From contig JACQKD010000014.1 in NCBI GenBank assembly GCA_016204695.1, positions 88,170-152,169 on the forward strand: a stretch of 64,000 bases of DNA, in the 5' to 3' direction. Positions 7,241 to 60,932 of this stretch are shown here, piece by piece. A model generated the notes under the pieces. The model did not search any database and was not told where the DNA came from. It was given only the letters and a program-made list of their open reading frames with translations. The stretch is from Candidatus Kaiserbacteria bacterium (GTDB lineage Bacteria; Patescibacteriota; Minisyncoccia; Phycocordibacterales; UBA918). Position 1 is the stretch's first letter. Every line of letters begins with the position of its first letter. The position numbers and the translations under genes were made by a program.

Positions 7241-7254
7241 GCAGGCTCTACCAT

Positions 7255-7788: not shown

Positions 7789-7792
7789 CAAG

Positions 7793-7821
7793 AAGCCCGG
7801 CTCCTTCGGAGCCGGGCTTCC
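7793..7821 (+). terminator. Stem-loop terminator after the FKBP gene
   Basis: GAAGCCCGGCTCC / TTCG / GAGCCGGGCTTC. Confidence 0.5.
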
Positions 7822-7830
7822 GCCTTTCCC

Positions 7831-9150: not shown

Positions 9151-9375
9151 ATGCACACTCTTGTCGTTGATATGTCGATCTGATTTTAATCCTATCGCGG
9201 TATATTCATGTTTCATCACGTCCATGCCTTGCGCTACCTTGTCTATCGCTTCCAGCAATACGCCCGTCATATTTTCTAAGTCTGTTTTTGTAGCAAACTC
9301 ATCAAGTCGAGTATTGAGTTCAGCCCTTGTAGGGAAAACAACCATCAGTTTTTTAATATCGGTGTCCGTGATCAT
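9130..9375 (-). CDS. Hypothetical small protein (AT-rich segment)
   Basis: 81-aa ORF in an AT-rich stretch between tgt and uvrB; no motif. Confidence 0.3.
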   Translation of the reverse strand: MITDTDIKKLMVVFPTRAELNTRLDEFATKTDLENMTGVLLEAIDKVAQGMDVMKHEYTAIGLKSDRHINDKSVHLNPIRS

Positions 9376-9475
9376 ATAGAAATGATACGTCTCAAGTTTT
9401 CTTTGTCAAACAAAAAGAAAACCGCCCCTTGCATGGACAAAGGAACGGTTTTCCTTTGTCCACCGGAGTGGACGG

Positions 9476-9927: not shown

Positions 9928-11967
9928 ATGAGCGGGTTTAAACTCTCTACAAACTACACCCCCGCGGGGGACCAGCCGAAGGCGATTGAGTCGCTTATAA
10001 AAGGCGTCAAGCGCGGCGACCGACACCAGACGCTTCTTGGTGTCACCGGCTCCGGCAAGACGTTCACGGCGGCAAACGTCATCGCGGCCATACAGAAGCC
10101 GACGCTCGTCATCGCACACAACAAGACGCTCGCGGCACAGCTCGCGCAGGAGTACGCGGACTTCTTTCCCGAAAACGACGTGCATTATTTCGTCTCGTAC
10201 TACGACTACTACCAACCCGAGGCGTACATGCCCATTTCGGACACATACATCGAGAAGGAGGCGATGATCAACGAGGAGATCGACCGCCTCCGCCACGCTT
10301 CGACGCAGGCACTTCTCTCGCGAAGCGATGTCATCATCGTCGCATCCGTCTCGTGCATTTACGGCCTCGGCTCGCCGATAGAATATGAAAAAGTGCACAA
10401 GCGCATCGAAGTCGGTACGGTCATCACGCGGCGCGACATGGTGCGCGCGCTCGTGGCATTGTATTTTGAACGTACCAACGCCGACCTTGCGCCCGGCCAC
10501 TTCCGCGCACTCGGCAACACCATAGAAATAATGCCGACAAACGAGCGCGTTATCTACCGGCTCTCCTTCAGCGGAGACGCCGTGGGAAAGATAGAACGCA
10601 TCGACGCGGTCACACGGACAATCATCGCGGAAGTGCCGACATTTTTCCTCTTTCCCGCAAAACATTTCGTGACACCCGAGCTGGAACGCAAGCGCGCCAT
10701 CGCCGACATTACACTCGAGCTCAAAGACCAGCTCGCAAAATTTGAAAAAGAAGGGAAGATTCTCGAAGCCGAGCGCATCAAGCGGCGCACCCAGCACGAC
10801 CTTGCGCTCATACGCGAAATCGGCTATTGCAACGGCATTGAAAACTACTCCCGCCATTTCGACGGCCGCAAGCCGGGGGAAGCGCCGTACACCCTCCTTT
10901 CATACTTCCCGCACAAGCCGGACGGCATGCCGGACTTTTTGACCATTATCGACGAGTCGCACGTCACCATCCCCCAGCTCGGCGGCATGTACGCGGGCGA
11001 CCGCTCGCGCAAGGACACGCTCGTCGAGCACGGATTCCGCCTGCCGAGCGCCGTGGATAACCGGCCGCTGACGTTTGACGAGTTTGAGGAGCGCGTCGGC
11101 GAAACCATCTACACCTCCGCGACGCCCGGCACCTACGAACACGAGCACAGCACGCAAGTCGTCGAGCAGATCATCCGTCCGACCGGACTTGTGGACCCGG
11201 AAATTATTGTGCGTCCGATTGTGAGTCAAGAAGAAAATCAAGGAAAAAATACTGAAGCGTACCCCGGACAAGTACGAGATTTCATCGCTGAAACAGAAAA
11301 GGTAGTAAAAGGCGGCGGCCGCGTGCTCGTCACCACGCTCACGAAAAAAATGGCCGAAGACCTCTCCGAATTCCTCAAGGAGCAAAGCGTGCAAGCCGAA
11401 TACATCCATAGCGAAATCAAGACGCTTGAACGCATCGAAATACTCACCAACTTTCGCAGAGGGAAGTTCGACGTGCTCGTCGGAGTCAACCTGCTCCGAG
11501 AAGGACTCGACCTTCCCGAAGTCGAGCTTGTCGCCATACTCGATGCGGACAAAGAGGGTTTCTTGCGTTCAGAAACATCGCTCATCCAGACCATCGGCCG
11601 CGCCGCACGCAATGTCAACGGCCGCGTCATACTCTACGCCGACGGGATGACCGGCTCGCTTGAAAAAGCCATCGGCGAGACCAACCGTCGCCGCGCCATT
11701 CAAATCGCATACAACACCGAGCACGGCATCACCCCGGCCACCATCAAGAAAGAAATCAAAGACATCACCGAACAGCTCCGTACCGTCCATGAGGAGACCG
11801 TAGACACACTCCTTTCCATCGACCGCGACCTCTACAAGAAGAACCCCAAGAAACTCATCCGCGAAAAGAACCGCCAAATGGCGGAAGCCGTCAAACTCCT
11901 CGACTTCGAAACCGCCGCCATCCTCCGCGACGAGATCAGAGCGCTGGAGGACAGAGGAGGTAGATAG
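9928..11967 (+). CDS. uvrB: Excinuclease ABC subunit B
   Basis: LLGVTGSGKTFTAANVIA (Walker A), YFVSYYDYYQPEAY, helicase motifs, C-terminal UVR domain LDFETAAILRDEIRALE. Confidence 0.95.
   Translation: MSGFKLSTNYTPAGDQPKAIESLIKGVKRGDRHQTLLGVTGSGKTFTAANVIAAIQKPTLVIAHNKTLAAQLAQEYADFFPENDVHYFVSYYDYYQPEAYMPISDTYIEKEAMINEEIDRLRHASTQALLSRSDVIIVASVSCIYGLGSPIEYEKVHKRIEVGTVITRRDMVRALVALYFERTNADLAPGHFRALGNTIEIMPTNERVIYRLSFSGDAVGKIERIDAVTRTIIAEVPTFFLFPAKHFVTPELERKRAIADITLELKDQLAKFEKEGKILEAERIKRRTQHDLALIREIGYCNGIENYSRHFDGRKPGEAPYTLLSYFPHKPDGMPDFLTIIDESHVTIPQLGGMYAGDRSRKDTLVEHGFRLPSAVDNRPLTFDEFEERVGETIYTSATPGTYEHEHSTQVVEQIIRPTGLVDPEIIVRPIVSQEENQGKNTEAYPGQVRDFIAETEKVVKGGGRVLVTTLTKKMAEDLSEFLKEQSVQAEYIHSEIKTLERIEILTNFRRGKFDVLVGVNLLREGLDLPEVELVAILDADKEGFLRSETSLIQTIGRAARNVNGRVILYADGMTGSLEKAIGETNRRRAIQIAYNTEHGITPATIKKEIKDITEQLRTVHEETVDTLLSIDRDLYKKNPKKLIREKNRQMAEAVKLLDFETAAILRDEIRALEDRGGR
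11896..11952 (+). repeat. Direct repeat A (native 3' end of uvrB)
   Basis: CTCGACTTCGAAACCGCCGCCATC... is repeated at 12919-12976 (first 24 nt identical, remainder ~75% identical and AT-richer). Confidence 0.7.
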
Positions 11968-12005: not shown

Positions 12006-12719
12006 ATGACCGATGATGAGATTCGCGAGACGGCAATCGAGTTTGCAAAACGAAACAAAAACCGCATTGCCCGAGAGCTTACCGACAAGACAACGTATGC
12101 GCCGGACACTGCACCGGTTTCCATTTTTATGGCTGGCTCGCCCGGAGCGGGAAAGACGGAATTTTCAAAAGCATTGATAACGCTTTTGGAAGTGCGCACG
12201 GGGCTTCGCGCGGTACGAATCGATAACGATGAGATACGTCCTTTAATTCCCGGATACACCGGAAGTAACTCATACCTATTCCAAGGAGCAACGACGCTCA
12301 TTGTCGAAAAAATGCATGACCTTGCCCTACATAACGGACAAAGTTTTATTATGGACAACACGTTCACGAATTTTGAAAAGGGTACTGATAATATCAGACG
12401 TTCCCTTGGAAAAGAACGCCCGATTTTAATTTTCTACTTGTACCAAAAACCGGAGGTTGCGTGGAGATTTACGCAAGCGCGAGAAGCGACAGAAGGCAGA
12501 AATATCCCGAAAGGGGCATTTATCGAACAATTTTTAGGTGCACGTCATACGGTTGCCAAAATCATCGATAGATTCGGAGACCGAGTCATTGCTTTTCTTG
12601 TCAAGAAAGATTTTGAGAAAAACACCTTGGAAGGCATCTATCGTGTTGTCGAAAGCCAAGAAATTGACCGGTATATACCAGAGGAGTACACTGAAGAGAA
12701 GTTGCAAGAATGCTTATGA
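12006..12719 (+). CDS. Zeta-toxin-family P-loop kinase (zeta/PezT-like)
   Basis: Walker A MAGSPGAGKTEF, RIDNDEIRPLIP, about 230 aa, AT-rich. Confidence 0.65.
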   Translation: MTDDEIRETAIEFAKRNKNRIARELTDKTTYAPDTAPVSIFMAGSPGAGKTEFSKALITLLEVRTGLRAVRIDNDEIRPLIPGYTGSNSYLFQGATTLIVEKMHDLALHNGQSFIMDNTFTNFEKGTDNIRRSLGKERPILIFYLYQKPEVAWRFTQAREATEGRNIPKGAFIEQFLGARHTVAKIIDRFGDRVIAFLVKKDFEKNTLEGIYRVVESQEIDRYIPEEYTEEKLQECL

Positions 12720-12898
12720 AACTACGCGCCATATTCTCTTTATTTCGAGACAACAAGAAAGGAGATTCTTTTTCCGATGTTCTTTTGCGTGCGCCTGAAG
12801 GTCAAAGGGAAGAATTATTCAAGGAAGCGGCACGACAGGCCAACGAGGAGCAAAGAAAAATATTTGAGCAGTCCCGCGTGAACACTCCGGCTTCTTGA
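12710..12898 (+). CDS. Small helical protein overlapping the zeta-toxin stop (possible cognate partner)
   Basis: 62-aa ORF whose ATG lies inside GAATGCTTATGA at the toxin 3' end (10-nt overlap). Confidence 0.3.
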   Translation: MLMKLRAIFSLFRDNKKGDSFSDVLLRAPEGQREELFKEAARQANEEQRKIFEQSRVNTPAS

Positions 12899-12918
12899 AA
12901 ACCGTCAAATCCGGCGGA

Positions 12919-12987
12919 CTCGACTTCGAAACCGCCGCCATCTTGCGGGATGAGATACGAGCGTTGGAAGAAGGAACGAAAAAGTAG
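12919..12987 (+). repeat. Direct repeat B: displaced duplicate of the uvrB 3' end (pseudo C-terminus ...LDFETAAILRDEIRALEEGTKK*)
   Basis: Homologous to 11896-11967; the pair brackets the zeta cassette. Confidence 0.7.
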
Positions 12988-12993
12988 TATAAT
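12988..12993 (+). promoter_or_regulatory. Putative -10 box (TATAAT) upstream of the vapB-like gene
   Basis: TATAAT lies 9 nt upstream of the GTG at 13003. Confidence 0.3.
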
Positions 12994-13002
12994 CACACCA
13001 TC

Positions 13003-13176
13003 GTGACCAAAGCTACCGTCACAAAAAGACTTACCGGCTTGGAGGCCGAGATTCGGATGCTCAAGACAGCCGTACGTACGCGACCGAATTTCGTCGTGGA
13101 TGACGCAAACTGGAAAAAAATTAAACCTGCTCTAAAGAAAGTGCGCAAACAGGTTTCCAAGCAGACCTATGGCTAA
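13003..13176 (+). CDS. vapB: VapB-like antitoxin (small ORF absent from the track because of its GTG start and <60 aa length)
   Basis: GTG-initiated 57-aa ORF VTKATVTKRLTGLEAEIRMLKTAVRTRPNFVVDDANWKKIKPALKKVRKQVSKQTYG. Its stop overlaps the vapC ATG (ATGGCTAA), indicating translational coupling. Confidence 0.5.
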   Translation: MTKATVTKRLTGLEAEIRMLKTAVRTRPNFVVDDANWKKIKPALKKVRKQVSKQTYG

Positions 13177-13606
13177 GCCAAAGGTTTTTGTAGACTCCAG
13201 TGTCATCATTGCTTCGCTTCTATCCGCAACAGGAGGTAGCGCGTATATTCTCAACAGCTATCACGAAAACTGCGAGTTTCAAACGAATGAGCACGGCTTG
13301 GCGGAAATTCAAAGGGTATTAAAAGATAAATTCGCCGATCAACCGGATTTACAAAACCAACTCTTTCTACTCCTCGGCACGGCTCGGATAGTAATATTAC
13401 TGAATCCTACAAAACGGGAACGAAACATTTGTGCCAAATATATTTCCGAGATAGACGCACCCATTCTCGCCTCGGCAATCAAGCATAGTGACTACTTGCT
13501 CACTCTTGATAACGAATTTTTAGGAAAGAGTGTGGCAGAAATCGCTCGAAAGAATTCTCTAACCATCCTAAAACCAAAAGATTTTATAGAACAATTCGAA
13601 ACATAA
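13169..13606 (+). CDS. vapC: PIN-domain toxin (VapC family)
   Basis: VFVDSSVIIASL (N-terminal catalytic Asp), DAPILASAI, LLTLDNEF. Confidence 0.8.
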   Translation: MAKPKVFVDSSVIIASLLSATGGSAYILNSYHENCEFQTNEHGLAEIQRVLKDKFADQPDLQNQLFLLLGTARIVILLNPTKRERNICAKYISEIDAPILASAIKHSDYLLTLDNEFLGKSVAEIARKNSLTILKPKDFIEQFET

Positions 13607-13608
13607 AC

Positions 13609-14115
13609 ATGGAAAATATTATTGATTCTATTTCTAAAGCAATTAGAGACAAAAACTGGTATTCAGCACTGGCTGTTTCACTCATGATCCCGGATATTTG
13701 TACTGCGCTCGAACACGAAAGAACTAACGGCGGCAGATACGCTGATTGGTTTCAAGAAAACTTGATCCAATATGATGGCTTCCTTTCGGGAAACGATTGT
13801 TATGCATTAAGGTGTTCTTTATTACACGAAGCGAGAGATGATATTACAACTCAAAGATGTCGCGATGTCTTGGAACGCTATTTATTTACGACAAGTGGCT
13901 TACATTTAGGTCTATTTACAGAAAATTATCTGAACGGTGAGAGGATACCTTCTATACTAGTATTGAATGTTCAACATTTTTGTGAAGATGTATGTGCCGC
14001 CGCTACGAAATGGCTAGAAGCTAATAAAAGGGACGCACAAATACAAACTCGTCTGGGACAGACGATCAAAATCTACAGGCCTGGAGAAAGCTACAAAGGC
14101 GTAATAGGATTCTGA
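13609..14115 (+). CDS. Hypothetical protein, possible HEPN-like (Rx4H motif)
   Basis: ALRCSLLHEARD contains R-x4-H. AT-rich and immediately follows vapC. Confidence 0.35.
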   Translation: MENIIDSISKAIRDKNWYSALAVSLMIPDICTALEHERTNGGRYADWFQENLIQYDGFLSGNDCYALRCSLLHEARDDITTQRCRDVLERYLFTTSGLHLGLFTENYLNGERIPSILVLNVQHFCEDVCAAATKWLEANKRDAQIQTRLGQTIKIYRPGESYKGVIGF

Positions 14116-14197
14116 TAGATCTAGAAATAGAACGCCCGACTTGCTATAATCTACCCGTCACATCCTCACACTATGTCCATAGGTGAGGCCGTTATCT

Positions 14198-16837
14198 ATG
14201 TCCGAGAAAAAACAAATGCAGAAAAAAACCGTGGGGAAAACAGCGAAGGAAGAAATCGTCATCAAGGGTGCGCGGACGCATAACTTGAAGAATATTTCTT
14301 TGACCTTGCCGCGAGGCGCGATGATTGCGTTCACGGGGCTTTCGGGGTCGGGGAAGTCGTCGCTTGCGTTCGATACGATTTTCGCGGAAGGACAGCGGCG
14401 GTATGTCGAGTCGCTTTCGACATATGCGCGGCAGTTTTTGCGGCAGATGCAGAAGCCGGATGTGGACGAAATCAGCGGACTTTCTCCAGCTATTTCTATT
14501 GACCAGAAGTCTGCTTCACGCAACCCGCGCTCGACGGTCGCGACCATCACCGAGATATACGACTACCTCCGCATTCTCTATGCGCGCGTCGGCCAGCCGT
14601 ATTGCCTCGGCGTGGATGTGCCTATTCAAAAGCTCTCGCAGGACGAAATTCTGCGGATTATTCTCGAATCCATAGAGAAACGAGAGGTTAAAAAAGCACA
14701 AAAGGATGAGCAAAAGGTCATGGGCGTGCCGGTTTCCTCGGAGCGCCTTGCCATCTTCGCCCCGGTCATCGTCGGCAGAAAAGGCGAATACTACCAGCTT
14801 CTCTACGACCTCCTCGGCAAAGGATACGAGACAGTGAAGATAGATGGGGAGATCAAACAGCTTCGCGAGCGTATCACACTCGCGAAGACCAAGCGTCACG
14901 ACATCGACGTGCTCGTGGATGAGATATATGTGAGCGAATTCCGTGACGACCCGAAGGGCGCGCGCGAGCGGCTTTCGGAGGCGATCGAGTACGCGCTCAA
15001 GGAATCGTCGGGGCTCATCAAGGTGCAAAGTCCGGACGGGAGCGAGCGCACTCTCTCGGCAAAATTCATCTGCCCCTCCGATGGCTCGTCGTTCCCCGAA
15101 GTCGAGCCGCGGCTCTTTTCATTCAACTCGCCATACGGCGCCTGCCCGGAATGCAACGGCCTCGGCACCGTCGGTATCTTCCACAGCGACCTTTGCCCAG
15201 CATGTCTCGGCGCGCGGCTTCGTCCGGAAGCGTTGCGCGTATACCTCACCGACGGCACGAAAGGCTCGCTCGGAAAAAGCATTGTAGACTTCACCGCCAT
15301 GACAATTCGCGAAGCGTACCAGTTCGTCGAAGACATCAAGCTTTCCAAAAAACAACAGGAAATCGCCTGGCCCGCGCTCCGCGAGATTATCGACCGACTG
15401 CAATTCATGATAGATGTCGGCATCGAATATCTCACGCTCGACCGCCGCGCCAACACGCTCTCCGGCGGCGAGGCACAGCGCATCCGGCTCGCTTCCCAGC
15501 TCGGCTCGGGACTCGTCGGCGCGCTCTATGTGCTCGACGAGCCGACCATCGGCCTCCATCAGCGCGACAACGACCGCCTCATCAAGACGCTCACCAACCT
15601 GCGCGACCTCGGCAACACCATTCTCGTCGTCGAACACGACGAGGACACCGTGCTTGCATCCGACTATCTCGTGGACATTGGCCCGGGCGCGGGCGTACAC
15701 GGCGGTAATGTCGTCGTCGACGGCTGGCTCGAAGAATTGCTCAACGCGAAGAAAAATACCTCCGGCTCGGTGACGCTCGACTATCTGCGCGGCGACCGCG
15801 TCATTCCTCTGCCGGAAAAGCGCAGAGAAGGAGAAAAGGGCTCAATCAAAATCCACGGCGGCAAGGCGTTCAATATCAAAAATATGCATGTGGACATCCC
15901 GCTCGGCCGCCTCATCGCGCTCACGGGAGTATCCGGCTCGGGAAAGTCCACCTTCATGTATGAAATCCTCTATCGCAACCTGCGCTCGCGCCTCGAACGG
16001 AAATACCGCACGCCGCACACATACAATGCCGCATCATTCACCGGGAGCGAGTACCTCGGTCGCGCGGTCATGATCGACCAGTCGCCCATCGGCCGCACCC
16101 CACGCTCCAACCCGGCCACATACACCGGCGCGTTCACCCACATCCGCGACTTGTTCGCCGCCGCAACAGAAGCCCGCGCGCGCGGCTGGAAGCCCGGACG
16201 GTTTTCATTCAATGTCAAAGGCGGGCGGTGCGAAGCATGCCAAGGCAACGGAGAGATTGCCGTCGAGATGCACTTCCTCCCGACCGTGTATGTCACCTGC
16301 GATGTCTGCGACGGCAAGCGATTCACCAAAGAGACGCTTGAAGTCATGTACAAAGGCAAAAATATCGACGAGGTGCTCCATATGACTATTGAAGAGGCTC
16401 TTGATTTTTTCAATGACATTCCGGCGGTGTACGACCGTCTGCGCACACTCATGGATGTGGGGCTCGGGTACCTTGAGCTCGGCCAGAGTGCGACCACGCT
16501 CTCCGGCGGCGAAGCACAGCGCGTGAAGATTTCCGCCGAGCTCTACCGCCGCCATACCGAGAAGACGATGTACCTGCTCGACGAGCCCACCATCGGCCTG
16601 CATTACGAAGACGTGAAAAAATTGATAGAGATTTTGCAAGAACTCGTCAACCGCGGCAACACCGTGATGGTCATCGAGCACAATCTCGACTTCATTAAAT
16701 CCGCCGACTATGTCATAGACATCGGCCCCGAAGGCGGCGAGAAGGGAGGCGAGCTCATCGCCAAAGGCACCCCGGAGGAAGTCGCTAAAAGCCAACACTC
16801 GTATACTGGGAAGTATTTGAAGAAAGTGTTGAGATAA
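14198..16837 (+). CDS. uvrA: Excinuclease ABC subunit A
   Basis: Two ABC ATPase modules (GLSGSGKSSLAFDT; GVSGSGKSTFMYE; two LSGGEAQR signatures), zinc fingers CPSC/CPEC and CEAC/CDVCDG. Track ORF begins at GTG 14183; the ATG at 14198 has an upstream GGTGAGG. Confidence 0.95.
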   Translation: MSEKKQMQKKTVGKTAKEEIVIKGARTHNLKNISLTLPRGAMIAFTGLSGSGKSSLAFDTIFAEGQRRYVESLSTYARQFLRQMQKPDVDEISGLSPAISIDQKSASRNPRSTVATITEIYDYLRILYARVGQPYCLGVDVPIQKLSQDEILRIILESIEKREVKKAQKDEQKVMGVPVSSERLAIFAPVIVGRKGEYYQLLYDLLGKGYETVKIDGEIKQLRERITLAKTKRHDIDVLVDEIYVSEFRDDPKGARERLSEAIEYALKESSGLIKVQSPDGSERTLSAKFICPSDGSSFPEVEPRLFSFNSPYGACPECNGLGTVGIFHSDLCPACLGARLRPEALRVYLTDGTKGSLGKSIVDFTAMTIREAYQFVEDIKLSKKQQEIAWPALREIIDRLQFMIDVGIEYLTLDRRANTLSGGEAQRIRLASQLGSGLVGALYVLDEPTIGLHQRDNDRLIKTLTNLRDLGNTILVVEHDEDTVLASDYLVDIGPGAGVHGGNVVVDGWLEELLNAKKNTSGSVTLDYLRGDRVIPLPEKRREGEKGSIKIHGGKAFNIKNMHVDIPLGRLIALTGVSGSGKSTFMYEILYRNLRSRLERKYRTPHTYNAASFTGSEYLGRAVMIDQSPIGRTPRSNPATYTGAFTHIRDLFAAATEARARGWKPGRFSFNVKGGRCEACQGNGEIAVEMHFLPTVYVTCDVCDGKRFTKETLEVMYKGKNIDEVLHMTIEEALDFFNDIPAVYDRLRTLMDVGLGYLELGQSATTLSGGEAQRVKISAELYRRHTEKTMYLLDEPTIGLHYEDVKKLIEILQELVNRGNTVMVIEHNLDFIKSADYVIDIGPEGGEKGGELIAKGTPEEVAKSQHSYTGKYLKKVLR

Positions 16838-19986: not shown

Positions 19987-20047
19987 GTGTAACTATAGCA
20001 GATCATATCCGCATCGGCCGCATACCGGATACCGTATGCACTTCCGT

Positions 20048-20075
20048 AGTGGACCCGAGGGGATTCGATCCTTAC
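20048..20075 (-). repeat. Degenerate duplicate of the tRNA-Ala(CGC) 3' end (integration scar)
   Basis: Reverse complement reads ...GTAAGGATCGAATCCCCTCGGGTCCA; the last 20 nt are identical to the 3' end of tRNA-Ala(CGC) 140 bp away. Confidence 0.6.
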
Positions 20076-20212
20076 AGGATCAGTATACCTTGCGGATACT
20101 TTTCTTCTCCGCCAGCCGGCGGATCGAAAAGATATCTCGCAAGGTCTGCGAACCCCCTGTATCCTACAAAAACATAGTCGCGTGACGCTTCGCGTCCCGC
20201 TCCTTGTTTTTG

Positions 20213-20284
20213 TGGACCCGAGGGGATTCGCACCCCTGACCCCTGCAATGCGAATGCAGTGCTCTACTCCTGAGCTACGGGCCC
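20213..20284 (-). tRNA. tRNA-Ala (anticodon CGC)
   Basis: GGGCCCG TA GCTC AGGAGTA GAGC A CTGCA TTCGCAT TGCAG GGGTC AGGGG TGCGAAT CCCCT CGGGTCC A; G3:U70 present. Confidence 0.9.
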
Positions 20285-20373
20285 GGCAACGCCTCATATG
20301 GTATCCGACAGGACGGGAAAAAGGAAGTTGCTGGCGGCATCTGTCGGTTTTGGCTACAATACACCATGCATCT

Positions 20374-20445
20374 CCTCCCGTCGTTCAACGGATAGGACGC
20401 GAGTTTCCGGAACTCGTAATGTCAGTTCGATTCTGGCCGGGAGGA
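20374..20445 (+). tRNA. tRNA-Arg (anticodon CCG)
   Basis: CCTCCCG TC GTTC AACGGATA GGAC G CGAGT TTCCGGA ACTCG TAAT GTCAG TTCGATT CTGGC CGGGAGG A. Confidence 0.8.
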
Positions 20446-20459
20446 CAAGAGCTTCATTG

Positions 20460-20530
20460 TGGACCTACGGGGAGTCGAACCCCGGCCTCCTCCATGCCAT
20501 GGAGGCGTTATACCGCTTAACTATAGGCCC
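20460..20530 (-). tRNA. tRNA-Ala (anticodon GGC)
   Basis: GGGCCTA TA GTTA AGCGGTA TAAC G CCTCC ATGGCAT GGAGG AGGC CGGGG TTCGACT CCCCG TAGGTCC A; G3:U70. Confidence 0.85.
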
Positions 20531-20570
20531 TCGAGTACGGGTCCGTGGAATTGTCTTCAACTCTACCTGA

Positions 20571-21116
20571 ATGCAATATCTCGCACAAGAACACCGCATG
20601 TTTGCAGAGGAAGCTGTCCACAGGACATACGAAAATACTTCACTTGTATCTTATACTGTGCCTAACGATCAGCATTTTGTGATGAATATCCTCTCATACT
20701 TCGACTTGAATAAGACGGCGGGCGGCTTCCGGGAACTCGGAGGCAGTGCGGCACTGGACTATAAGATGAAAGCCGAGCCGCCAGCCGCTCCGGTACCGGA
20801 AGCGCCGGAGACAGTAAAACCGCAAGCGCGCCCGATGCCCCTCTTTGAACAGCTCGTGCTGTACGCCGGCGTGATCATCGGCGTACTCTTCAGCTCAACA
20901 GTTAGACAATTCCAGGATGGAGCAGTCGCATTGCCAAAACTCGGTTTTGCCTCCGTACTGATTGCGGCGGTCGTGTCGCTGATCATCATCCCCATCGTGT
21001 TCGACAAGCTCAAGGTCAATCCCGACGCGCCGTTTATCATCCGCTTCGGCCTCTTCGTCCAACACGGCGCATTCTGGCACATCCTCCTTGTCGCGATCGG
21101 CAAGGCAATCGTTTGA
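20571..21116 (+). CDS. Hypothetical membrane protein
   Basis: C-terminal TM helices; start uncertain. Confidence 0.35.
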   Translation: MQYLAQEHRMFAEEAVHRTYENTSLVSYTVPNDQHFVMNILSYFDLNKTAGGFRELGGSAALDYKMKAEPPAAPVPEAPETVKPQARPMPLFEQLVLYAGVIIGVLFSSTVRQFQDGAVALPKLGFASVLIAAVVSLIIIPIVFDKLKVNPDAPFIIRFGLFVQHGAFWHILLVAIGKAIV

Positions 21117-21199
21117 ACCGGTACATAACGCCCGGGTAGCAAAGACAGAAAAAATATGTATAGTTGAAGGGAACAAAAGCAGTCCATAGGACTGTTTTT

Positions 21200-21272
21200 G
21201 GGCCCCTAGCTCATCTGGTAGAGCACCGGTTTTGCACTCCGGAGGCGAGCGGTTCGAGTCCGCTGGGGTCCA
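21200..21272 (+). tRNA. tRNA-Ala (anticodon TGC)
   Basis: GGGCCCC TA GCTC ATCTGGT AGAGC A CCGGT TTTGCAC TCCGG AGGCG AGCGG TTCGAGT CCGCT GGGGTCC A; G3:U70. Confidence 0.9.
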
Positions 21273-21292
21273 CATACGGTGTAGGATGTAGG

Positions 21293-23015
21293 GGTATCCG
21301 CTTAAGGCGGGACAATTGGGTGTCGGTCATGTACGCTGAAGGACTGAATTCCACCACGAGTTCAGTCACCCTTCAGAGGACCGACCGACATGAAATTTTG
21401 GGCCAAAAGTCTTCGCATTGTCAACGCTTTTTGTGACAACGCCGCGCAGAGCATCCGACACGTGGCGCATCAGACCGGGTTCTCCAAGAGCAGTGTGCAT
21501 CGCCTCAAACAGGCGATGGAACGCCGAGACCGCCACCCAGAGTCGTGGTTGTGGGAAACGGAAGAAGGCCACCGTTGGCTCCTCCGTCTGGTGGTCGCCG
21601 CCCTTTTTACGTTCGGTCTCACACGCGGTGTCGGGGCGGAAACCCTCAGCGAGTTTTTTGGCCGTCTGCGCCTCGAGGCACATATCGGGTCTTCGCCCAG
21701 CGCCTTGCGGAGGATGATGGAGGCGTTGGAGGCCGTGCTTCTGGAGACGGCAGGAACATGGGAGCACGAGGGGGTAGCTGCCGGAGAGATCAGACCAATC
21801 ATCGGCGCGGTGGACGAAACCTTCTTGGAACGCATGATGCTGGTGTTCATGGACCTTGCCAGTGGCTACTTGGTGGCTGAAGAGGTTGCCGCGGATCGGA
21901 GTTATGACACCTGGTACGCTGTGGTCACGGCACGCCTGGCGACGCTGGGGGTTGGTGTGAGGTACATGGTGAGTGACCGGGCCAAGGCACTGATCAAACT
22001 GGCGGACACGGGGCTGGCGTGCTTGAGCGTCCCGGACTTCTTCCACCTTCTCCATGACCTGACCAAGAGCTATTCGCTGGCCATTGTCAGTCGGCTGAGG
22101 CACGCGCAGCAGGCCTTGCAGCACGCGCAGGAGCGTCTTGCCGCGTGCCAAGAGGCTCATCCAGACGGTGCGGACGTGCAACACGTGCACGCCTTGGTGG
22201 AGGTGCATGAAGCGGAAGTCCAGCGCTGGCAAAACGTGCACAGTGACTACCGGCACCACCTCGAGCACCTGTCGCTCATCATGCATCCATGGCGCTTAGG
22301 AGGCTCGACACCCCAGACGTCACACGAAGTGGAAGACCTCTTACAGACAGAGATCGCGGCCCTGGAAACCTTGGTCGCAACGCAGGGGGTGCCCATCAAG
22401 AAGCACGCCTTGGAGAAGGTCCGCAAGCAGCTCGCGGGCGTCGCCGCCCTGGTGGACGTGTGGTGGCAGGAGGTGTGGCACGATGTGCAGTCTCAGGTTG
22501 CCCTGACGTCGCAGTGGCGGGGCTGGGTTGCAGAGTGTGTGCTGCCGCTCATGTATTGGCAGGAACAACTGGCGCGCACGCGTTGCCCACGACGCAAAGC
22601 CAAGCTCTTCGAGGCGTTGCAGACGGTTGAGGAGGCCATGGAAACGCATCCCCTCACCCGCCAGTTGGCCCCCGAGGTCCTGGCGGGGTGGAAAGTCTGG
22701 GCGGCCGAGCATGCCAGAGGCTTTCAGCGGGCCTCCTCGGCGGTTGAAGGGCGCAACGGTGCGCTGCCGCAGTTGCACCACAACCAGCGCGGCTTGCCCA
22801 AACGCCGCTACAAGGTGTGGACGGTGTTGCACAACTTCGACTGTCGTGCCGCGGACGGGAGCACGCCCGCCTCACGGTTTTTCCGGCACGAATTTCCGGA
22901 CCTCTTTGAGACGGTGCTCTCAAAAATCGATGACGTACCACGATCTCGTCAACGCCACCAGGCTCTGGCGATAAGTATTTGAAGCTATAGAATGTCCCGC
23001 TTTAAGCGGATACCC
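21293..23015 (+). mobile_element. Insertion sequence, ISL3-family-like (1.72 kb, single transposase, 22-bp terminal inverted repeats, 9-bp target-site duplication GGATGTAGG)
   Basis: IR-L GGTATCCGCTTAAGGCGGGACA (21293-21314) matches the reverse complement of IR-R (22993-23015) with one mismatch. Flanking direct repeat GGATGTAGG at 21284-21292 and 23016-23024. GC content is higher than surrounding DNA. Confidence 0.75.
21390..22982 (+). CDS. DDE transposase (ISL3-like)
   Basis: N-terminal HTH; catalytic-region signatures AVDETF...MDL, MVSDRAKAL...VPDFFHLLHDL (DrFHv-like) and AVEGRNGALPQLHHNQRGL (EGxN...RG). Confidence 0.7.
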   Translation: MKFWAKSLRIVNAFCDNAAQSIRHVAHQTGFSKSSVHRLKQAMERRDRHPESWLWETEEGHRWLLRLVVAALFTFGLTRGVGAETLSEFFGRLRLEAHIGSSPSALRRMMEALEAVLLETAGTWEHEGVAAGEIRPIIGAVDETFLERMMLVFMDLASGYLVAEEVAADRSYDTWYAVVTARLATLGVGVRYMVSDRAKALIKLADTGLACLSVPDFFHLLHDLTKSYSLAIVSRLRHAQQALQHAQERLAACQEAHPDGADVQHVHALVEVHEAEVQRWQNVHSDYRHHLEHLSLIMHPWRLGGSTPQTSHEVEDLLQTEIAALETLVATQGVPIKKHALEKVRKQLAGVAALVDVWWQEVWHDVQSQVALTSQWRGWVAECVLPLMYWQEQLARTRCPRRKAKLFEALQTVEEAMETHPLTRQLAPEVLAGWKVWAAEHARGFQRASSAVEGRNGALPQLHHNQRGLPKRRYKVWTVLHNFDCRAADGSTPASRFFRHEFPDLFETVLSKIDDVPRSRQRHQALAISI

Positions 23016-23036
23016 GGATGTAGGATGGTGTAGGTT
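23016..23036 (+). repeat. 24-bp (TGTAGG)x3-type site, copy 1 (split by the IS; other half at 21277-21292)
   Basis: Reconstituted pre-insertion site GGTGTAGGATGTAGGATGGTGTAGG. Related copies at 23770-23791 and 25417-25442. Confidence 0.6.
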
Positions 23037-23054
23037 TTTTGCTTTATATGGCTA

Positions 23055-23267
23055 TTGACTGGACAGACATACAAAAAGAATACAAAGGGCTCTGGGTGGC
23101 CGCTCAAGGAAGATGAACAGACTGTAGTAGGGAGCGGCAAGACTCTTGCGGAGGCCCTGGAAAAAGCGAAGGAAGCCGGATATGAGAAACCCATTGTTGT
23201 CTGCACGTCAGAAAGGGTCCTGCCGTTTATAGGCGGCCCCCAATTAGTGACGGGAAAAGAAGAGTAG
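23055..23267 (+). CDS. DUF2188-like small protein (TTG start)
   Basis: KGSGWPLKEDEQTVVGSGKTLAEALEKAKEAGYEKPIVV resembles the DUF2188 pattern (GWaVk.eG....tqaeAie.A...A). Confidence 0.45.
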   Translation: MTGQTYKKNTKGSGWPLKEDEQTVVGSGKTLAEALEKAKEAGYEKPIVVCTSERVLPFIGGPQLVTGKEE

Positions 23268-23312
23268 ATTGCGGGAGAGAAATAAGAGGCAGAGCAGGGA
23301 GAAAATGAAAGA

Positions 23313-23347
23313 GAGAAGCCGTCAGAATAAATCTCTGACGGCTTCTC
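23313..23347 (+). terminator. Terminator hairpin (14-bp stem, T-rich tail)
   Basis: GAGAAGCCGTCAGA / ATAAATC / TCTGACGGCTTCTC then TCTTTTCTC. Core GCCGTCAGA..TCTGACGGC is shared with the hairpin at 24963-24993. Confidence 0.6.
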
Positions 23348-23489
23348 TCTTTTCTCATGCTATAATCCGTTCAATTTGTACCTTCTAAACTGACGGGGAG
23401 AAAGTCCGGTGCCCTTTTTGATCTTCAGGGAGCTACGTCACTTTCCTCCCCCTCCATAGCCACCAACACTTGGTAGCTACGGCGGGGGC

Positions 23490-23705
23490 GTGAGTAAGGT
23501 CGACCGCTTCCCGAATTATCAACAAAAGTTCCGAATGTGTATGAGTATAAATAAAACTACTACTCAAACCGGGCAAAAAGCTCCTATTTCTGGTCAATAT
23601 CGGCCAGTTGGTACGCGCGACGAAATCACCCTCTCGAAGGGGGATCGTGTTCCACCGTACCAGAAGGAAGCCAAGAAGTTTGTTCTGGTTGATAAAACCA
23701 AATAG
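23490..23705 (+). CDS. YjzC-like small protein (hypothetical)
   Basis: GQKAPISGQYRPVGTRDEITLSKGDRVPP resembles the YjzC family pattern. Start may be the internal Met at 23544. Confidence 0.4.
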   Translation: MSKVDRFPNYQQKFRMCMSINKTTTQTGQKAPISGQYRPVGTRDEITLSKGDRVPPYQKEAKKFVLVDKTK

Positions 23706-23769
23706 CTTCTGACGCCCAGAATCCCCGTCAGTTTCGAGAGTACAACTCTTATTTTCTATAAGGCTCAGT

Positions 23770-23791
23770 GGGGATGTAGGTCGGTGTAGAC
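23770..23791 (+). repeat. 24-bp (TGTAGG)x3-type site, copy 2
   Basis: GGGGATGTAGGTCGGTGTAGAC lies 16 nt upstream of the SIR2-like ORF. Confidence 0.55.
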
Positions 23792-23806
23792 TTATACAAG
23801 TTCGTA

Positions 23807-24862
23807 TTGTTAAAAATTGGAAATCTGAATGAGGGTATGTCGAATCCACTTATAATTTTCGGAGCAGGCGCGTCCTTTGACTATTCTGCGTTTGGTAACA
23901 TCGCTCCACTTACTAATGATCTCGTCTCAGAACGTTTTCTTCATCACGATCTTTTAGAAAAATATCAAGGTGCCAACGATCTGTTATCTGATATGGTGCA
24001 CCAGGTCCATACACGTAATCGCGCATTTGAGACCGTCTTGAGCGAGATGAGAGAACGTGCGGCCCATTCTCCGCAACTTCTCAGTCAATTCGCAGCACTT
24101 GAATTTTATTTAAAAGCTCTTTTCAAGCGGATCTCAACTCCCTCGGACCTAACAAGAAGAGCGTATCAGGTAAACAATTATCGGATTATAAATAATCGTA
24201 TACATGCGTACTCTGGTGGTAGAGCAAATATTATATCTTTTAATTACGACACTCTCTTTGAGCATACTCTTGGTGCAAAAGCGCCAAAAAACATGCTGGA
24301 ATATATTTCTGGTGATATTAAAATCTTCAAACTGCATGGTTCCCACGACTGGCTTCATATACAACCAAGATCGCTAATGGGGGGTGATCCAAAGACAGAA
24401 GCAGAGGATATTGACTGGTACTTGGGTCGTCCAGATTTTATTGAGAATATTAGAGCTAGAAATGACACAAGTCCTTACCATGAACTAGAGCTCCACGAAC
24501 GTCCGAATAGAAATCGATATGCTTGGTTTCCAGCGATCGCTGTCCCTTTAAATAGTAAAGACAGATATGTTTGTCCTCCGAGGCATATCCAAGCGCTCGA
24601 ACAGGTACTGCCAAAGATCGATCGGGTTCTTATTATTGGTTGGAAAGCAGGAGATCAGCTTCTTCTTGAAATGCTTTCAAGACACTTGCCTAACTTCGGC
24701 TACAAGTTGCTTGTGATCTCAGGAACTGTAGATGGTGCGCAAAAGGTTGCCGAAGTTGTTCGAGATAAACTTACTGCCCATGCAGGAAAAATTGAGGCAC
24801 GTGGCGGTGGATTCTCAGATTTCGTAGGTAGCGATATAAGTCATAGCTTTTTTGCCGATTGA
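23807..24862 (+). CDS. SIR2-like (SIR2_2/DHS-like NAD-binding) domain protein, standalone; candidate anti-phage NADase
   Basis: IIFGAGASFD (GAGxS nucleotide-binding loop), ISFNYDTLFE, KLHGSHDW. AT-rich gene in a mobile island; track ORF starts at TTG 23807, first ATG at 23837. Confidence 0.7.
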   Translation: MLKIGNLNEGMSNPLIIFGAGASFDYSAFGNIAPLTNDLVSERFLHHDLLEKYQGANDLLSDMVHQVHTRNRAFETVLSEMRERAAHSPQLLSQFAALEFYLKALFKRISTPSDLTRRAYQVNNYRIINNRIHAYSGGRANIISFNYDTLFEHTLGAKAPKNMLEYISGDIKIFKLHGSHDWLHIQPRSLMGGDPKTEAEDIDWYLGRPDFIENIRARNDTSPYHELELHERPNRNRYAWFPAIAVPLNSKDRYVCPPRHIQALEQVLPKIDRVLIIGWKAGDQLLLEMLSRHLPNFGYKLLVISGTVDGAQKVAEVVRDKLTAHAGKIEARGGGFSDFVGSDISHSFFAD

Positions 24863-24962
24863 TTTATCATTACCAGGAGACACTTGACGACCTTGTATGC
24901 TTTGGTACTATATAGATACAAGTGGCTTCGGCCTCACCCCCGCAAGGGGGAGAAAATGCAGG

Positions 24963-24993
24963 AAAGCCGTCAGAACAAGTTTCTGACGGCTTT
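24963..24993. terminator. Bidirectional hairpin between convergent SIR2-like and MazF-like genes
   Basis: AAAGCCGTCAGAA / CAAGT / TTCTGACGGCTTT overlaps the last codons of the minus-strand toxin. A GC hairpin CCCCC GCAA GGGGG sits at 24934-24953. Confidence 0.5.
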
Positions 24994-25353
24994 TCTCAAT
25001 TCTGCGAATATTTCCTTGTCGAGAAAACCGACCTTTTCGACCAAACGCCGCGTATCGATCACTCGAAGTTGTGAGAGGAGCGCTTTCGCCTCCTTGTCTT
25101 GAACTATCCCCACAGAGATACGGAGTCGATGGGGATGCGGAGAGGTGGTTAGCGGGATAACCGCACAGGTTTCTGCTCCAAACGAGCGTATGATCACCAC
25201 CGGCCGAAGAAATGATTTACCGCTCCCGTCCTGTTCCGATCCGACATTCACGCCGAGTCGACACCACCATATTTCGCGAACCGTATAGAGACGAGATTCT
25301 TCACCATGGGTCTGCTTTTTCAGCGTATTCCACGTATCGAAATCTTTTGTCAT
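24970..25353 (-). CDS. MazF/PemK-family endoribonuclease toxin (type II TA), no adjacent canonical antitoxin
   Basis: REIWWCRLGVNVGSEQDGSGKSFLRPVVIIR...CAVIPLTTSPHP...IDTRRLVEKVGFLDKEIFAELRKAV aligns motif-for-motif with the MazF/NdoA family (GSEQxG, RPxxVI, xPxTT, IDxxRL). Confidence 0.75.
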   Translation of the reverse strand: MTKDFDTWNTLKKQTHGEESRLYTVREIWWCRLGVNVGSEQDGSGKSFLRPVVIIRSFGAETCAVIPLTTSPHPHRLRISVGIVQDKEAKALLSQLRVIDTRRLVEKVGFLDKEIFAELRKAVRNLF

Positions 25354-25402
25354 GAAGTTAGGGAAATCATAGCATGGACATTTTATGATGGTATGATGAG
25401 TC

Positions 25403-25549
25403 TTATCGAGAGGGGAGTGTAGGGTGTAGGTTGGTGTAGGACTTTTTCTCTAACAGCTTCTGGACGGGTGCCAGAAAATCCTTGTTTTCCGCCACAGCGG
25501 TTCGAACGTCGTCCAATAAGGCCCACAACTGTAGAAAATCCCGTCTCAT
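25403..25549 (-). CDS. Possible 48-aa ORF upstream of the MazF-like toxin (speculative antitoxin candidate; overlaps repeat site 3)
   Basis: ATG at the centre of the 42-nt palindrome encodes MRRDFLQLWALLDDVRTAVAENKDFLAPVQKLLEKKSYTNLHPTLPSR; ends 49 nt before the toxin start. Confidence 0.2.
   Translation of the reverse strand: MRRDFLQLWALLDDVRTAVAENKDFLAPVQKLLEKKSYTNLHPTLPSR
25417..25442 (+). repeat. 24-bp (TGTAGG)x3-type site, copy 3
   Basis: GTGTAGGGTGTAGGTTGGTGTAGGAC. Confidence 0.55.
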
Positions 25550-25570
25550 ATGAGACGGGATTTTCTACAG
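25529..25570. promoter_or_regulatory. Perfect 42-nt palindrome (21-nt arms, no spacer); operator or bidirectional terminator candidate
   Basis: CTGTAGAAAATCCCGTCTCATA|TGAGACGGGATTTTCTACAG. Confidence 0.5.
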
Positions 25571-25697
25571 TTGAAGGGGAGTTCGGAACGGACTCGAAGC
25601 TGTTGCGAGCTAGACTATGAGCGAAGCGAAATAGTATAGCCGCAACGGAGGAGTCGATTACCGCACCCGGGACAGGTCTGTTAAAATGGCAACCTGT

Positions 25698-26690
25698 ATG
25701 AAACTTCTGATTGTGACACATCTTGAGACGAGCAAGAAACCTGCTCCGCACACACCGGGATTGCGTACGCTTACCCGCGTGCAGGTGAAAAAGATCAAGG
25801 CGGTCGCGCCGAAGATGGAGATAATCGTGACCGGAGAGCCGGACGAAATCGAGCGGCATGCCGCCGATGCGAACATCATCGTGACGTCTCCGCGGACGCT
25901 CCCGCCGCTTGCACATGCAACACATCTCACATGGCTTCACTCGCTCTCGGCGGGCGTGGACCGCATCCTGACACCCGAGGTCAAGAAGTCATCGGTCATC
26001 GTCTCAAATTCTTCCGGCGTGCATGCGGTCCCGATTGCAGAGCATGTCATGGCATACCTGCTCATTTTCGCGCGCGGTTTTTTACATTCGCTTGAAAATC
26101 AAAAGCATCGTCTCTGGAAACGGGGCGAAGGCATGACCGAGCTGTATGAGAAGACCGTACTCATCGTCGGCATGGGGAATATCGGGAGCGAAGTCGCGAG
26201 ACGCGCGCATGCATTCGACTGTCATATCATCGCGCTCACGCGAAGCGGAAAGACCGACTCAAAATACGTTCACGAGATACACAAAGCATCGGCGCTTGAG
26301 CGCATGCTGAAGAAAGCCGATTTTGTTGTGAGTTGTCTGCCCGGCACACCGGAGACGCATCACATCTTTGACCGCAAAAAATTCGGCCTTATGAAGCCGA
26401 GCGCGTACTTCATCAACATCGGCCGCGGTTCGCTCGTGCATGAAAAAGACCTCATCGCCGCGCTCAAGAAAAAGCTCATCGCGGGCGCCGCGCTCGATGT
26501 CGCCGAGACCGAGCCGCTTCCCGCAGAAAGCCCGCTCTGGAACATGCAAAATGTCATCATCACTCCACACCATTCCGGCGCCTCCGAACGATACATGGAC
26601 CGCGCCATCGACCGCTTCGTGCTCAATCTCAAAGCATACCTGCGGAAGAAACCCCTCCCGAATCTCGTAGACAAAACCTTGGGGTACTGA
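25698..26690 (+). CDS. D-isomer-specific 2-hydroxyacid dehydrogenase (NAD-binding)
   Basis: GMGNIGSEVARRA (GxGxxG), INIGRGSLV, ALDVAETEP, ITPHHSG. Confidence 0.8.
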   Translation: MKLLIVTHLETSKKPAPHTPGLRTLTRVQVKKIKAVAPKMEIIVTGEPDEIERHAADANIIVTSPRTLPPLAHATHLTWLHSLSAGVDRILTPEVKKSSVIVSNSSGVHAVPIAEHVMAYLLIFARGFLHSLENQKHRLWKRGEGMTELYEKTVLIVGMGNIGSEVARRAHAFDCHIIALTRSGKTDSKYVHEIHKASALERMLKKADFVVSCLPGTPETHHIFDRKKFGLMKPSAYFINIGRGSLVHEKDLIAALKKKLIAGAALDVAETEPLPAESPLWNMQNVIITPHHSGASERYMDRAIDRFVLNLKAYLRKKPLPNLVDKTLGY

Positions 26691-60919: not shown

Positions 60920-60932
60920 AATGAAATAATTT

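Follow-up and report, generated by a model that had tools for sequence, protein, structure and literature searches.

Does a lone SIR2-like gene, with neither a fused nor a neighbouring sensor, encode a nicotinamide adenine dinucleotide (NAD+)-consuming defence against phages? The question is raised by an open reading frame (ORF) at 23807–24862 on the + strand of a 64,000-nucleotide stretch of Candidatus Kaiserbacteria DNA, the whole of which we call the window. A sequence-only reading had proposed that its product is either a minimal SIR2 defence effector or one half of a new two-component arrangement with an adjacent MazF-like toxin. Our analysis retains the former proposal, which is backed by the fold, the motifs, the acquisition of the gene and the mobile contexts of its relatives, but neither the link to MazF nor the claim that the architecture has no described match. 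We propose that the gene is a putative single-gene NAD+-consuming defence effector, an assignment to which we give a probability of roughly 0.55. Such a role is reasonable because the protein has the SIR2 residues, no CobB features and no sensor, and because the gene was recently acquired and has relatives in mobile contexts.

Fold and catalytic site of the SIR2-like protein

The annotated frame is present in the ORF list, opens with a TTG codon and encodes 351 amino acids. An identical protein (100%) is held at NCBI as HY416_04275, a 'hypothetical protein' of Candidatus Kaiserbacteria (Patescibacteria/candidate phyla radiation, CPR). In a 46-sequence alignment (A1), the N-termini of the homologues all fall at M11 of the SIR2-like protein (MAYPLIIFGAGAS...). 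Because of this we moved the start to the ATG at 23837, which is probably the real start and would give a product of 341 amino acids. Apart from this correction, the frame and its signatures IIFGAGASFD, ISFNYDTLFE and KLHGSHDW, on which the sequence-only reading had relied, were confirmed by reading the sequence.

The AlphaFold2 model of the protein has a predicted local distance difference test score (pLDDT) of 93.8 and a predicted template modelling score (pTM) of 0.92, and shows one compact SIR2 domain composed of three parts: a Rossmann core, an α-helical subdomain and a second insertion. All three catalytic elements are encoded on the + strand. The NAD-binding GxG loop that follows β-strand 1 is formed by GAGAS (G19–S23; 23861–23875), which is invariant in 46/46 aligned homologues. 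The xxNxD catalytic motif corresponds to N146-Y147-D148 (24242–24250) within ISFNYDTLFE, and the catalytic histidine is H177 (24335–24337) within KLHGSHDW (K175–W182; 24329–24352). Besides the GxG loop, N146, Y147, K175, G178 and W182 are invariant in the alignment, and D148 and H177 are conserved in at least 90% of the sequences.

The helical subdomain (approximately residues 36–136; 23912–24214, +) is inserted after β-strand 1 according to DSSP. It is free of cysteines, has a mean column entropy of 2.38 bits, and occupies the position at which canonical sirtuins have their zinc module and small domain. The second insertion (residues 186–237; 24362–24517, +) is hypervariable. With a column entropy of 3.12 bits it is the most variable part of the protein, and the interval from W182 to P242 that contains it ranges from 48 to 73 amino acids among homologues. 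We regard this insertion as a candidate specificity or sensing surface. The whole protein contains one cysteine, C256, which is also the sole cysteine among the alignment columns conserved at 90% or more; the Cys4 zinc ribbon of canonical deacylases is therefore absent. The canonical Pfam SIR2 profile (PF02146) does not match the protein at E ≤ 0.1. A CobB-like housekeeping deacetylase, an identity that the sequence-only reading had named as one that would refute its proposal, is thus excluded by the single cysteine, the missing zinc module and the missing PF02146 match.

Searches with NCBIfam and PHROGs yielded no match, and a single-sequence search of the PDB with the SIR2-like protein returned only noise, so that a family profile was required. 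This profile matched the SIR2 subunit of the Paenibacillus SIR2-HerA complex (PsSIR2, 8w9l) with an E value of 5e-7, aligning FNYDtLlE with TNYDLLME and KLHGShdW with KLHGSINW. In ThsA, the same motifs were aligned with TTNYD and KMHG. On the basis of this alignment, we take N146 and H177 to be the equivalents of the catalytic Asn112 and His152 of ThsA. Foldseek likewise placed the model on the SIR2 subunit of SIR2-HerA at an E value of 1e-6. In the structure comparison, the values are 15.4 and 15.1 for the SIR2 subunits of SIR2-HerA (8w9l and 8yhx), 12–13 for canonical sirtuins, 12.2 for ThsA, 12.1 for SirTM, 10.9 for Avs5 and 9.6 for FAM118B. Against the viral fold library BFVD, the model gave weak sirtuin matches only.

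The traits of the SIRim group are described as a GxG loop, an xxNxD motif, the lack of a zinc tetrad, a variable helical loop and at least seven strands (bioRxiv 10.1101/2024.09.18.613514; PMC12700824). The SIR2-like protein has a Rossmann fold, the GxG, xxNxD and histidine elements, no cysteine tetrad, a helical region and 8 strands of at least three residues (DSSP, counted over the whole model and not the central sheet alone). Motifs and model together place it in the SIR2_2/'SIRim' branch of the sirtuin superfamily, with a predicted NAD+ pocket whose motifs are intact and with no zinc/acyl-lysine module. Among its relatives, 44/46 match the Pfam SIR2_2 profile (PF13289) at E ≤ 0.01, the best at 1.3e-8, and the family is a divergent one at the edge of that profile. 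The SIR2 fold and catalytic residues claimed from the letters are hence upheld by the AlphaFold2 and Foldseek results and by the alignment of the motifs with PsSIR2 and ThsA.

A family of single-domain proteins and its genomic contexts

The gene stands out by composition. Its GC content is 0.426 and its GC content at third codon positions (GC3) is 0.342, against 0.63–0.68 in the surrounding housekeeping genes, and 1.5% of equal-length windows are as AT-rich, in agreement with the AT-richness reported earlier. The gene is foreign by composition; it was recently acquired, and the small islet around it is linked to a tRNA gene and includes an insertion sequence (IS).

Relatives were collected by searching 1.84 billion representative proteins, clustered at 50% identity, exhaustively with the family profile. 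Of these, 6,393 matched at E ≤ 1e-3, and 1,914 clusters at E ≤ 1e-30. The best 150 matches are each 314–406 amino acids long and cover most or all of the profile. One-domain architecture is thus the rule among the best-matching members and not a truncation. The taxonomy is patchy, comprising several Patescibacteria lineages, Acidobacteriota, Chloroflexota, Actinomycetota, Nitrospira, Bacteroidota and Proteobacteria. Residues E75, W182, P242/A245/P247 and G278-W279 are invariant and specific to the family.

Consistent with this architecture, Pfam, PADLOC and NCBIfam revealed no extra domain in the SIR2-like protein, and Pfam and PADLOC gave no SLOG or TIR matches. The flanking ORFs encode a YjzC-like protein (71 amino acids) and a PemK/MazF-like protein. 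In the 16 distinct window ORFs of at least 380 amino acids, four of which are without a Pfam match and more than 5 kb away from the gene, we found no HerA, FtsK, Argonaute, STAND or TIR protein. The single-domain model, the identity of the flanks and the negative library scans agree with the earlier observation that no sensor domain is fused or adjacent.

To define the context of the family, 87 loci of relatives were fetched, ORFs were called, and four genes on each side were clustered. Across approximately 80 genomes this clustering yielded no conserved neighbour, and repeats occurred only among redundant contigs of the same organism. When the 139 neighbours at positions ±1 and ±2 were searched with Pfam and PADLOC, no family occurred in more than 2–3 of about 75 loci. 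There was no recurrent ATPase across the relatives' loci, and no HerA among the neighbours whose domains were scanned.

The sequence-only reading would have been undermined by close homologues that always sit in core, non-mobile surroundings, and this is not what we found. Six close homologues were looked up: three have large serine recombinases in their vicinity, with a type III restriction-modification (R-M) system beside one of the three as well, and one further homologue is in a prophage-like region. The relative with 54% identity (L088) adjoins the large serine recombinase and the type III R-M system. A Taylorbacteria relative (L001, 49%) has a reverse transcriptase/bAvd pair and a serine recombinase nearby, together with a faint match to a small terminase. 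Reverse transcriptase/bAvd pairs are typical of diversity-generating retroelements. The relative with 46% identity (L090) belongs to a prophage-like series of short ORFs that also includes an M78 peptidase. Elsewhere, a Bryobacterales copy (L013) is located between phage-tail-like genes, a Flavobacteriales copy (L031) adjoins PDC-S56 (E 1e-220), and two copies (L015 and L091) have housekeeping surroundings, L015 adjoining LepA. Taken singly, many of these surroundings are characteristic of accessory or defence genes, and the association with defence genes and mobile elements is frequent without being universal.

Several observations weigh against a single-gene defence effector. The protein scores 17.3 bits on PF13289, below the gathering score of 24.5. 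The PADLOC check suggested by the sequence-only reading did touch the 'SIR2' models, but the matches were weak and partial, with a best E value of 2.6e-5. As a consequence of both results, current defence catalogues would miss the gene. Defence genes occur within two genes of the relatives in a minority of cases, about 8/75 loci, and many relatives, especially those of Acidobacteriota and Chloroflexi, lie amid housekeeping genes such as LepA, RecA and GcpE. A tblastn search of INPHARED phages and PLSDB plasmids and a scan of IMG/VR viral contigs found no relatives. For the SIR2 effectors characterised so far, activity requires a sensor or partner; neither is evident at this gene, which leaves any activation route speculative. 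Finally, some relatives are tightly coupled to ATPase partners, and lone copies could therefore be orphans.

This last point leads to the strongest rival, in which the protein would be an NADase dependent on a partner, such as an ATPase of the ABC (ATP-binding cassette) or SMC (structural maintenance of chromosomes) type or an R-M complex, and the copy studied here either a remnant or an effector acting in trans with a partner elsewhere in the genome. In a Paceibacterota contig (L005, JAIPIX010000004.1, 48% identity), the SIR2 gene starts 2 nt after a gene for an AriA/PtuA-like ABC ATPase (521 amino acids, PADLOC AriAB 2e-35) and is followed 5 nt on by a 145-amino-acid ORF. These three tightly packed genes (6433–9472) lie near a serine recombinase and form a possible ATPase-plus-SIR2 defence system distinct from SIR2-HerA. 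In a gammaproteobacterium (L012, 11–4662) and a Woesebacteria member (L057, 6827–11995), the gene sits inside a type I R-M operon, flanked by hsdS and hsdR at distances of 1–2 nt, and in Adlerbacteria (L076) a mad3/LmuB-like SMC protein is encoded just before it. Among solved structures, the closest are SIR2 subunits activated by HerA, and the window itself contains an HsdR-like gene at 60933–63293. Set against these cases are the lack of any neighbour family beyond the 2–3 loci mentioned, the single-domain state of all the best 150 matches, and the solitary position of several close relatives, one of which (L089) is encoded on the opposite strand to both neighbours. In addition, the catalytic and family-invariant residues are all intact in the window copy, which argues against decay. 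We therefore consider dependence on a lost or distant partner the best-surviving of the alternatives, if still an unlikely one.

The housekeeping surroundings of many distant relatives would also suit a non-immune NAD+-dependent enzyme with a metabolic or regulatory role, for example a SirTM-like ADP-ribosyltransferase or an atypical deacylase. Canonical deacylation, however, requires the zinc module/Cys tetrad (PMC12700824; bioRxiv 10.1101/2024.09.18.613514) that the SIR2-like protein lacks. A macrodomain partner of the SirTM type was found neither at the gene nor at the looked-up loci of relatives, and the atypical GC3, patchy taxonomy and lack of synteny speak against a metabolic role, which we judge improbable.

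The function we favour is thus defence by NAD+ consumption. DSR, SIR2-HerA, Thoeris and prokaryotic Argonaute (pAgo) systems abort infection with SIR2 domains that hydrolyse NAD+ (bioRxiv 10.1101/2021.12.14.472415), and activation of SIR2 proteins is generally oligomeric, as in the filaments of ThsA and Avs5, the HerA-bound SIR2 dodecamers and the filaments of FAM118B (PMC12700824; PDB titles). The gene itself was horizontally acquired, presumably carried by a 2.4-kb islet beside tRNA-Ala, and would be transcribed alone. By extension from these systems, we hypothesise that its product is a latent NADase, inactive in uninfected cells. An infection cue may be sensed by its own variable surfaces, namely residues 186–237 and the helical subdomain, rather than by a neighbouring sensor gene, and a change in oligomeric state would then activate the protein. 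Phage infection would thereby lead to NAD+ hydrolysis, and both the metabolism of the cell and the growth of the phage would stop, resulting in abortive infection. The NADase chemistry, the anti-phage role and the manner of sensing and activation are all put forward here as predictions.

More tentatively, the entire family of about 1,900 clusters, with members of about 340 amino acids, might consist of autonomous SIR2 sensor-effectors, that is, oligomeric NADases switched on when the hypervariable insertion, the helical subdomain or both directly recognise a phage component, without any separate sensor domain or partner gene. We regard this broader proposal as doubtful. If it is true, no self-contained SIR2 sensor-effector would be smaller. 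The family is plentiful in Patescibacteria and soil phyla, and its genes can be slotted into R-M operons or combined with ATPases. Were its members active alone, they would reveal how small a protein suffices to link phage sensing with NAD+ depletion. They would also add to the defence catalogues a widespread, unannotated single-gene system that PADLOC v2.0.0 matches weakly and in part and NCBI lists as 'hypothetical', and would be among the few defence candidates in ultra-small Patescibacteria. In a limited literature search we found no report of SIR2-type defence for Patescibacteria.

The islet beside tRNA-Ala(TGC)

The islet begins 5 nt past the 3' end of a tRNA-Ala(TGC) gene (21200–21273, +; ARAGORN, and 59 bits in the Rfam tRNA model). 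This gene is the last of a four-tRNA cluster on alternating strands (20212–21273), in the order Ala-CGC (−), Arg-CCG (+), Ala-GGC (−) and Ala-TGC (+). An ORF for a membrane protein of 181 amino acids lies between the third and fourth tRNA. An Rfam scan of 20000–26500 gave only tRNAs above threshold. The tRNA gene is followed by a complete IS (21292–23015, +), whose terminal inverted repeats of 23 nt are 96% complementary. The transposase (21390–22982) comprises 530 amino acids with a helix-turn-helix domain and DUF6399 (Pfam E 9e-56), and the gene has a GC3 of 0.746. A target duplication of 8–9 bp, GGATGTAG(G), can be read from the sequence at 21284–21292 and 23016–23024. An island starting at a tRNA gene and carrying an IS, as the sequence-only reading had described, is therefore present.

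The IS is inserted within one of three arrays of a tandem heptamer, (A/G)TGTAGG, whose units are spaced in a register of 7 or 10 nt. The heptamer pattern has 5 matches against 0.05 expected, all of them in these arrays and none in the remainder of the window. Array A (+) is split by the IS into a left half at 21279–21291 and a right half at 23016–23035, and reads GGTGTAGGATGTAGGATGGTGTAGG when restored. Array B (23772–23791, +; GGATGTAGGTCGGTGTAGA), with the units GGATGTAGG TCG GTGTAGA, ends 45 nt before the ATG at 23837 and corresponds to the repeat site that had been noticed directly upstream of the SIR2-like gene. Array C (25417–25441, +; AGTGTAGGGTGTAGGTTGGTGTAGG) is identical to the restored array A in 22/25 positions, and direct repeats thus bracket a 2.4-kb islet. 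The arrays could be att-like borders or operator sites. No such array was found near SIR2 or MazF homologues elsewhere; a lone match in the Taylorbacteria locus (L001) differs in sequence and looks like chance.

From array A to array C, the islet contains a DUF5678-like gene, a hairpin (23297–23355), the YjzC-like gene, array B, the SIR2-like gene, a second hairpin (24948–25003) and the MazF-like gene on the − strand. The DUF5678-like gene (23048–23267, +; Pfam E 2e-4, profile positions 17–43 only) is a small cargo gene that appears to be frameshifted. The frame of the ATG at 23048 encodes MAIDWTDIQKEYKGLWVAAQGR*, and the frame of the TTG at 23055 holds the rest of the domain. The former stretch may correspond to the N-terminal part of the DUF5678 profile that the match lacks, and the gene is either a pseudogene or the product of an assembly error. 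The YjzC-like cargo gene (23490–23705, +) encodes the 71-residue protein mentioned above (Pfam YjzC E 2.3e-6).

The second hairpin separates the convergent SIR2-like and MazF-like genes. It folds with −28.3 kcal/mol as RNA, matches a scan for terminator-like structures and has z scores of −5.8 on the + strand and −6.0 on the − strand, which makes it a probable bidirectional terminator. Given its position, the SIR2-like gene is most likely monocistronic, with a unit that extends from array B to the hairpin. The two hairpins, 56–59 nt long and 1,650 nt apart, are about 85% identical (AAGCCGTCAGAA...TTCTGACGGCTT), and their z scores lie between −5.8 and −8. Each is followed by an array, at spacings of 456 and 458 nt. 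We considered that the two hairpin-to-array segments (23297–23802 and 24948–25452) might be a diverged duplication and rejected this idea, as their inner parts are no closer to each other than shuffled sequences (z 0.66). Just the hairpin and the array are repeated, and the sequence between them is unrelated.

The islet contains no integrase, and the secondary IS is its only mobility gene. An empty site in a sister genome was not retrieved, as a scan via the flanking 2-hydroxyacid dehydrogenase gave only relatives with 40–41% identity. For these two reasons, an islet with att-like direct repeats is plausible, and its borders are not proven. Between the MazF-like gene and the dehydrogenase gene lies a perfect, loopless palindrome of 48 nt (25526–25573, 24 + 24 nt), with an RNA fold of −43 kcal/mol and a z score of −12; it yields spurious ORFs (MRRDFLQL...) on both strands.

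The contents of the islet also bear on whether the SIR2-like gene might be an addiction toxin or selfish cargo. According to this interpretation, the NADase would be held in check by a labile inhibitor, either the YjzC-like or DUF5678-like product or an RNA, and would stabilise the islet instead of countering phages. Uncontrolled NAD+ depletion is intrinsically toxic. The islet holds other toxin-like or small genes (MazF-like, DUF5678-like and YjzC-like), and the window has further AT-rich toxin islets, with a Zeta toxin and PIN protein at 12006–14115 and Fic at 60011–60919. Yet neither the YjzC-like nor the DUF5678-like gene occurs at any other SIR2 locus, neighbour clustering reveals no small conserved ORF family upstream or downstream of the relatives, and a hairpin and the heptamer array lie between the SIR2-like gene and the genes upstream of it. 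A stabilising toxin thus has, in our view, an outside chance of being the correct explanation.

The convergent MazF-like neighbour described in the sequence-only reading is genuine: the ORF at 24970–25353 (−) encodes a PemK/MazF-like protein of 127 amino acids (Pfam PemK_toxin E 1.7e-15). This protein is 65–91% identical to more than 100 Patescibacteria proteins, nearly all of which have 125–130 amino acids. In two other genomes (L094, 91% identity; L096, 71%) the gene stands alone amid housekeeping genes, where SIR2 is absent and no antitoxin was called, and no SIR2 gene occurs near the MazF homologues in the four loci L094–L097. Upstream of the window copy, there is no candidate for a MazE-like antitoxin other than a 48-amino-acid ORF derived from the palindrome and an implausible ORF of 185 amino acids that overlaps the dehydrogenase gene. 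High conservation combined with a solo state is odd for a type II toxin. Conversely, homologues of the MazF-like, DUF5678-like and YjzC-like proteins were detected in 0 of the 87 loci of SIR2-like relatives (tblastn E ≤ 0.01).

The proposed two-component system, in which the convergent RNase and the SIR2-like protein would work together, has as its sole support an adjacency of 107 nt in convergent orientation with a common hairpin, and is effectively refuted by the absence of the pairing from all 87 loci, the solo gene in other genomes, the differing GC3 values (0.523 for the MazF-like gene versus 0.342) and an orientation and terminator that exclude co-transcription. The MazF-like gene is a neighbour only and no functional partner of the SIR2-like gene, and the adjacency is coincidental.

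Two other regions of the window have a lower GC content. A second AT-rich islet (12006–14115, GC about 0.40) lies between uvrB (9928–11967) and uvrA (14183–16837) and contains genes for a Zeta-toxin-family protein (E 2e-37), a protein with a PIN domain and an unknown protein of 168 amino acids. A third region (60011–63293) comprises a Fic/DOC gene (60011–60919, E 2e-23) followed by that of a type I restriction R subunit (60933–63293), which is HsdR-like and has ResIII and EcoEI_R_C domains.

Relation to known SIR2 systems

Comparing the putative effector with described systems reveals its closest characterised relatives in the SIR2 subunits of SIR2-HerA (Nezha; 8w9l, 8yhx, 8sub and 8j4u), the only PDB family reached by the profile. 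The proteins have xNYDxLxE and KLHGSxxW in common, are about 340–400 amino acids long and lack a zinc module. However, the identity between them is only 16–19%, the family sets itself apart by its own invariant residues, and the defining HerA partner is absent, being neither adjacent nor present among the long ORFs of the window.

Thoeris, DSR, SPARSA and Avs5 each differ in the sensor that defines them. ThsA of Thoeris has a SLOG domain fused to SIR2 and an adjacent TIR protein, neither of which exists at this gene. DSR1 and DSR2 are proteins of about 1,000 amino acids in which a SIR2 domain at the N-terminus is joined to a large C-terminal sensor, whereas the SIR2-like protein has 341–351 amino acids and its family 314–406. 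SPARSA, SIR2-APAZ and pAgo systems have an APAZ domain or an Argonaute, and Avs5 a STAND NTPase; none of these occurs in the protein or its neighbours. Canonical sirtuins (CobB, Sir2Af and SIRT1-7) bear a Cys4 zinc ribbon, in contrast to the single cysteine and missing PF02146 match observed here, and are described with a 6-stranded sheet, whereas the 8 strands of our model are counted over all of it. Unlike the genes of canonical sirtuin deacylases, the SIR2-like gene is foreign and mobile.

In architecture, the closest counterpart is AbiH of Lactococcus lactis (PF14253), likewise a single, mobile-element-borne gene for a protein of about 350 amino acids with a SIR2-like fold and no partner. 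This single-gene abortive-infection protein has long been known to confer resistance and is now recognised as sirtuin-like; it demonstrates that a SIR2-like protein on its own is able to make cells phage-resistant (PMC13064643; bioRxiv 10.1101/2024.09.18.613514). It has been discussed as a possible NAD-depleting abortive-infection protein (PMC13064643) and is counted in SIRim (bioRxiv 10.1101/2024.09.18.613514). The SIR2-like family nonetheless fails the AbiH profile, on which the protein scores 15.3 bits against a gathering score of 30.9 and to which 2/46 relatives match at E ≤ 0.01, compared with the 44/46 for SIR2_2.

Human FAM118B offers a mechanistic template, by analogy, for how a sensor-less SIR2 protein may work. 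It is a lone SIR2_2 protein whose NAD processing depends on filaments (PMC12700824). Vertebrate FAM118B and FAM118A share with the SIR2-like protein the lone SIR2_2 domain, the Rossmann part, a small helical subdomain and the lack of a zinc module. FAM118B differs in being eukaryotic; for the SIR2-like protein, filaments are at most a prediction from this analogy.

The sequence-only reading had held that the architecture is unlike those described. This is true with respect to HerA, Thoeris, DSR and pAgo systems, none of which is recognisable at the locus, but lone SIR2-like proteins have already been described in AbiH and FAM118B. Given these precedents, a lone SIR2-like defence gene would be no new kind of system. 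As both SIR2 NADase effectors and lone SIR2-like proteins are established, the gain is incremental and not conceptual. What is new here is a large, distinct and uncharacterised family, and its presence in CPR bacteria.

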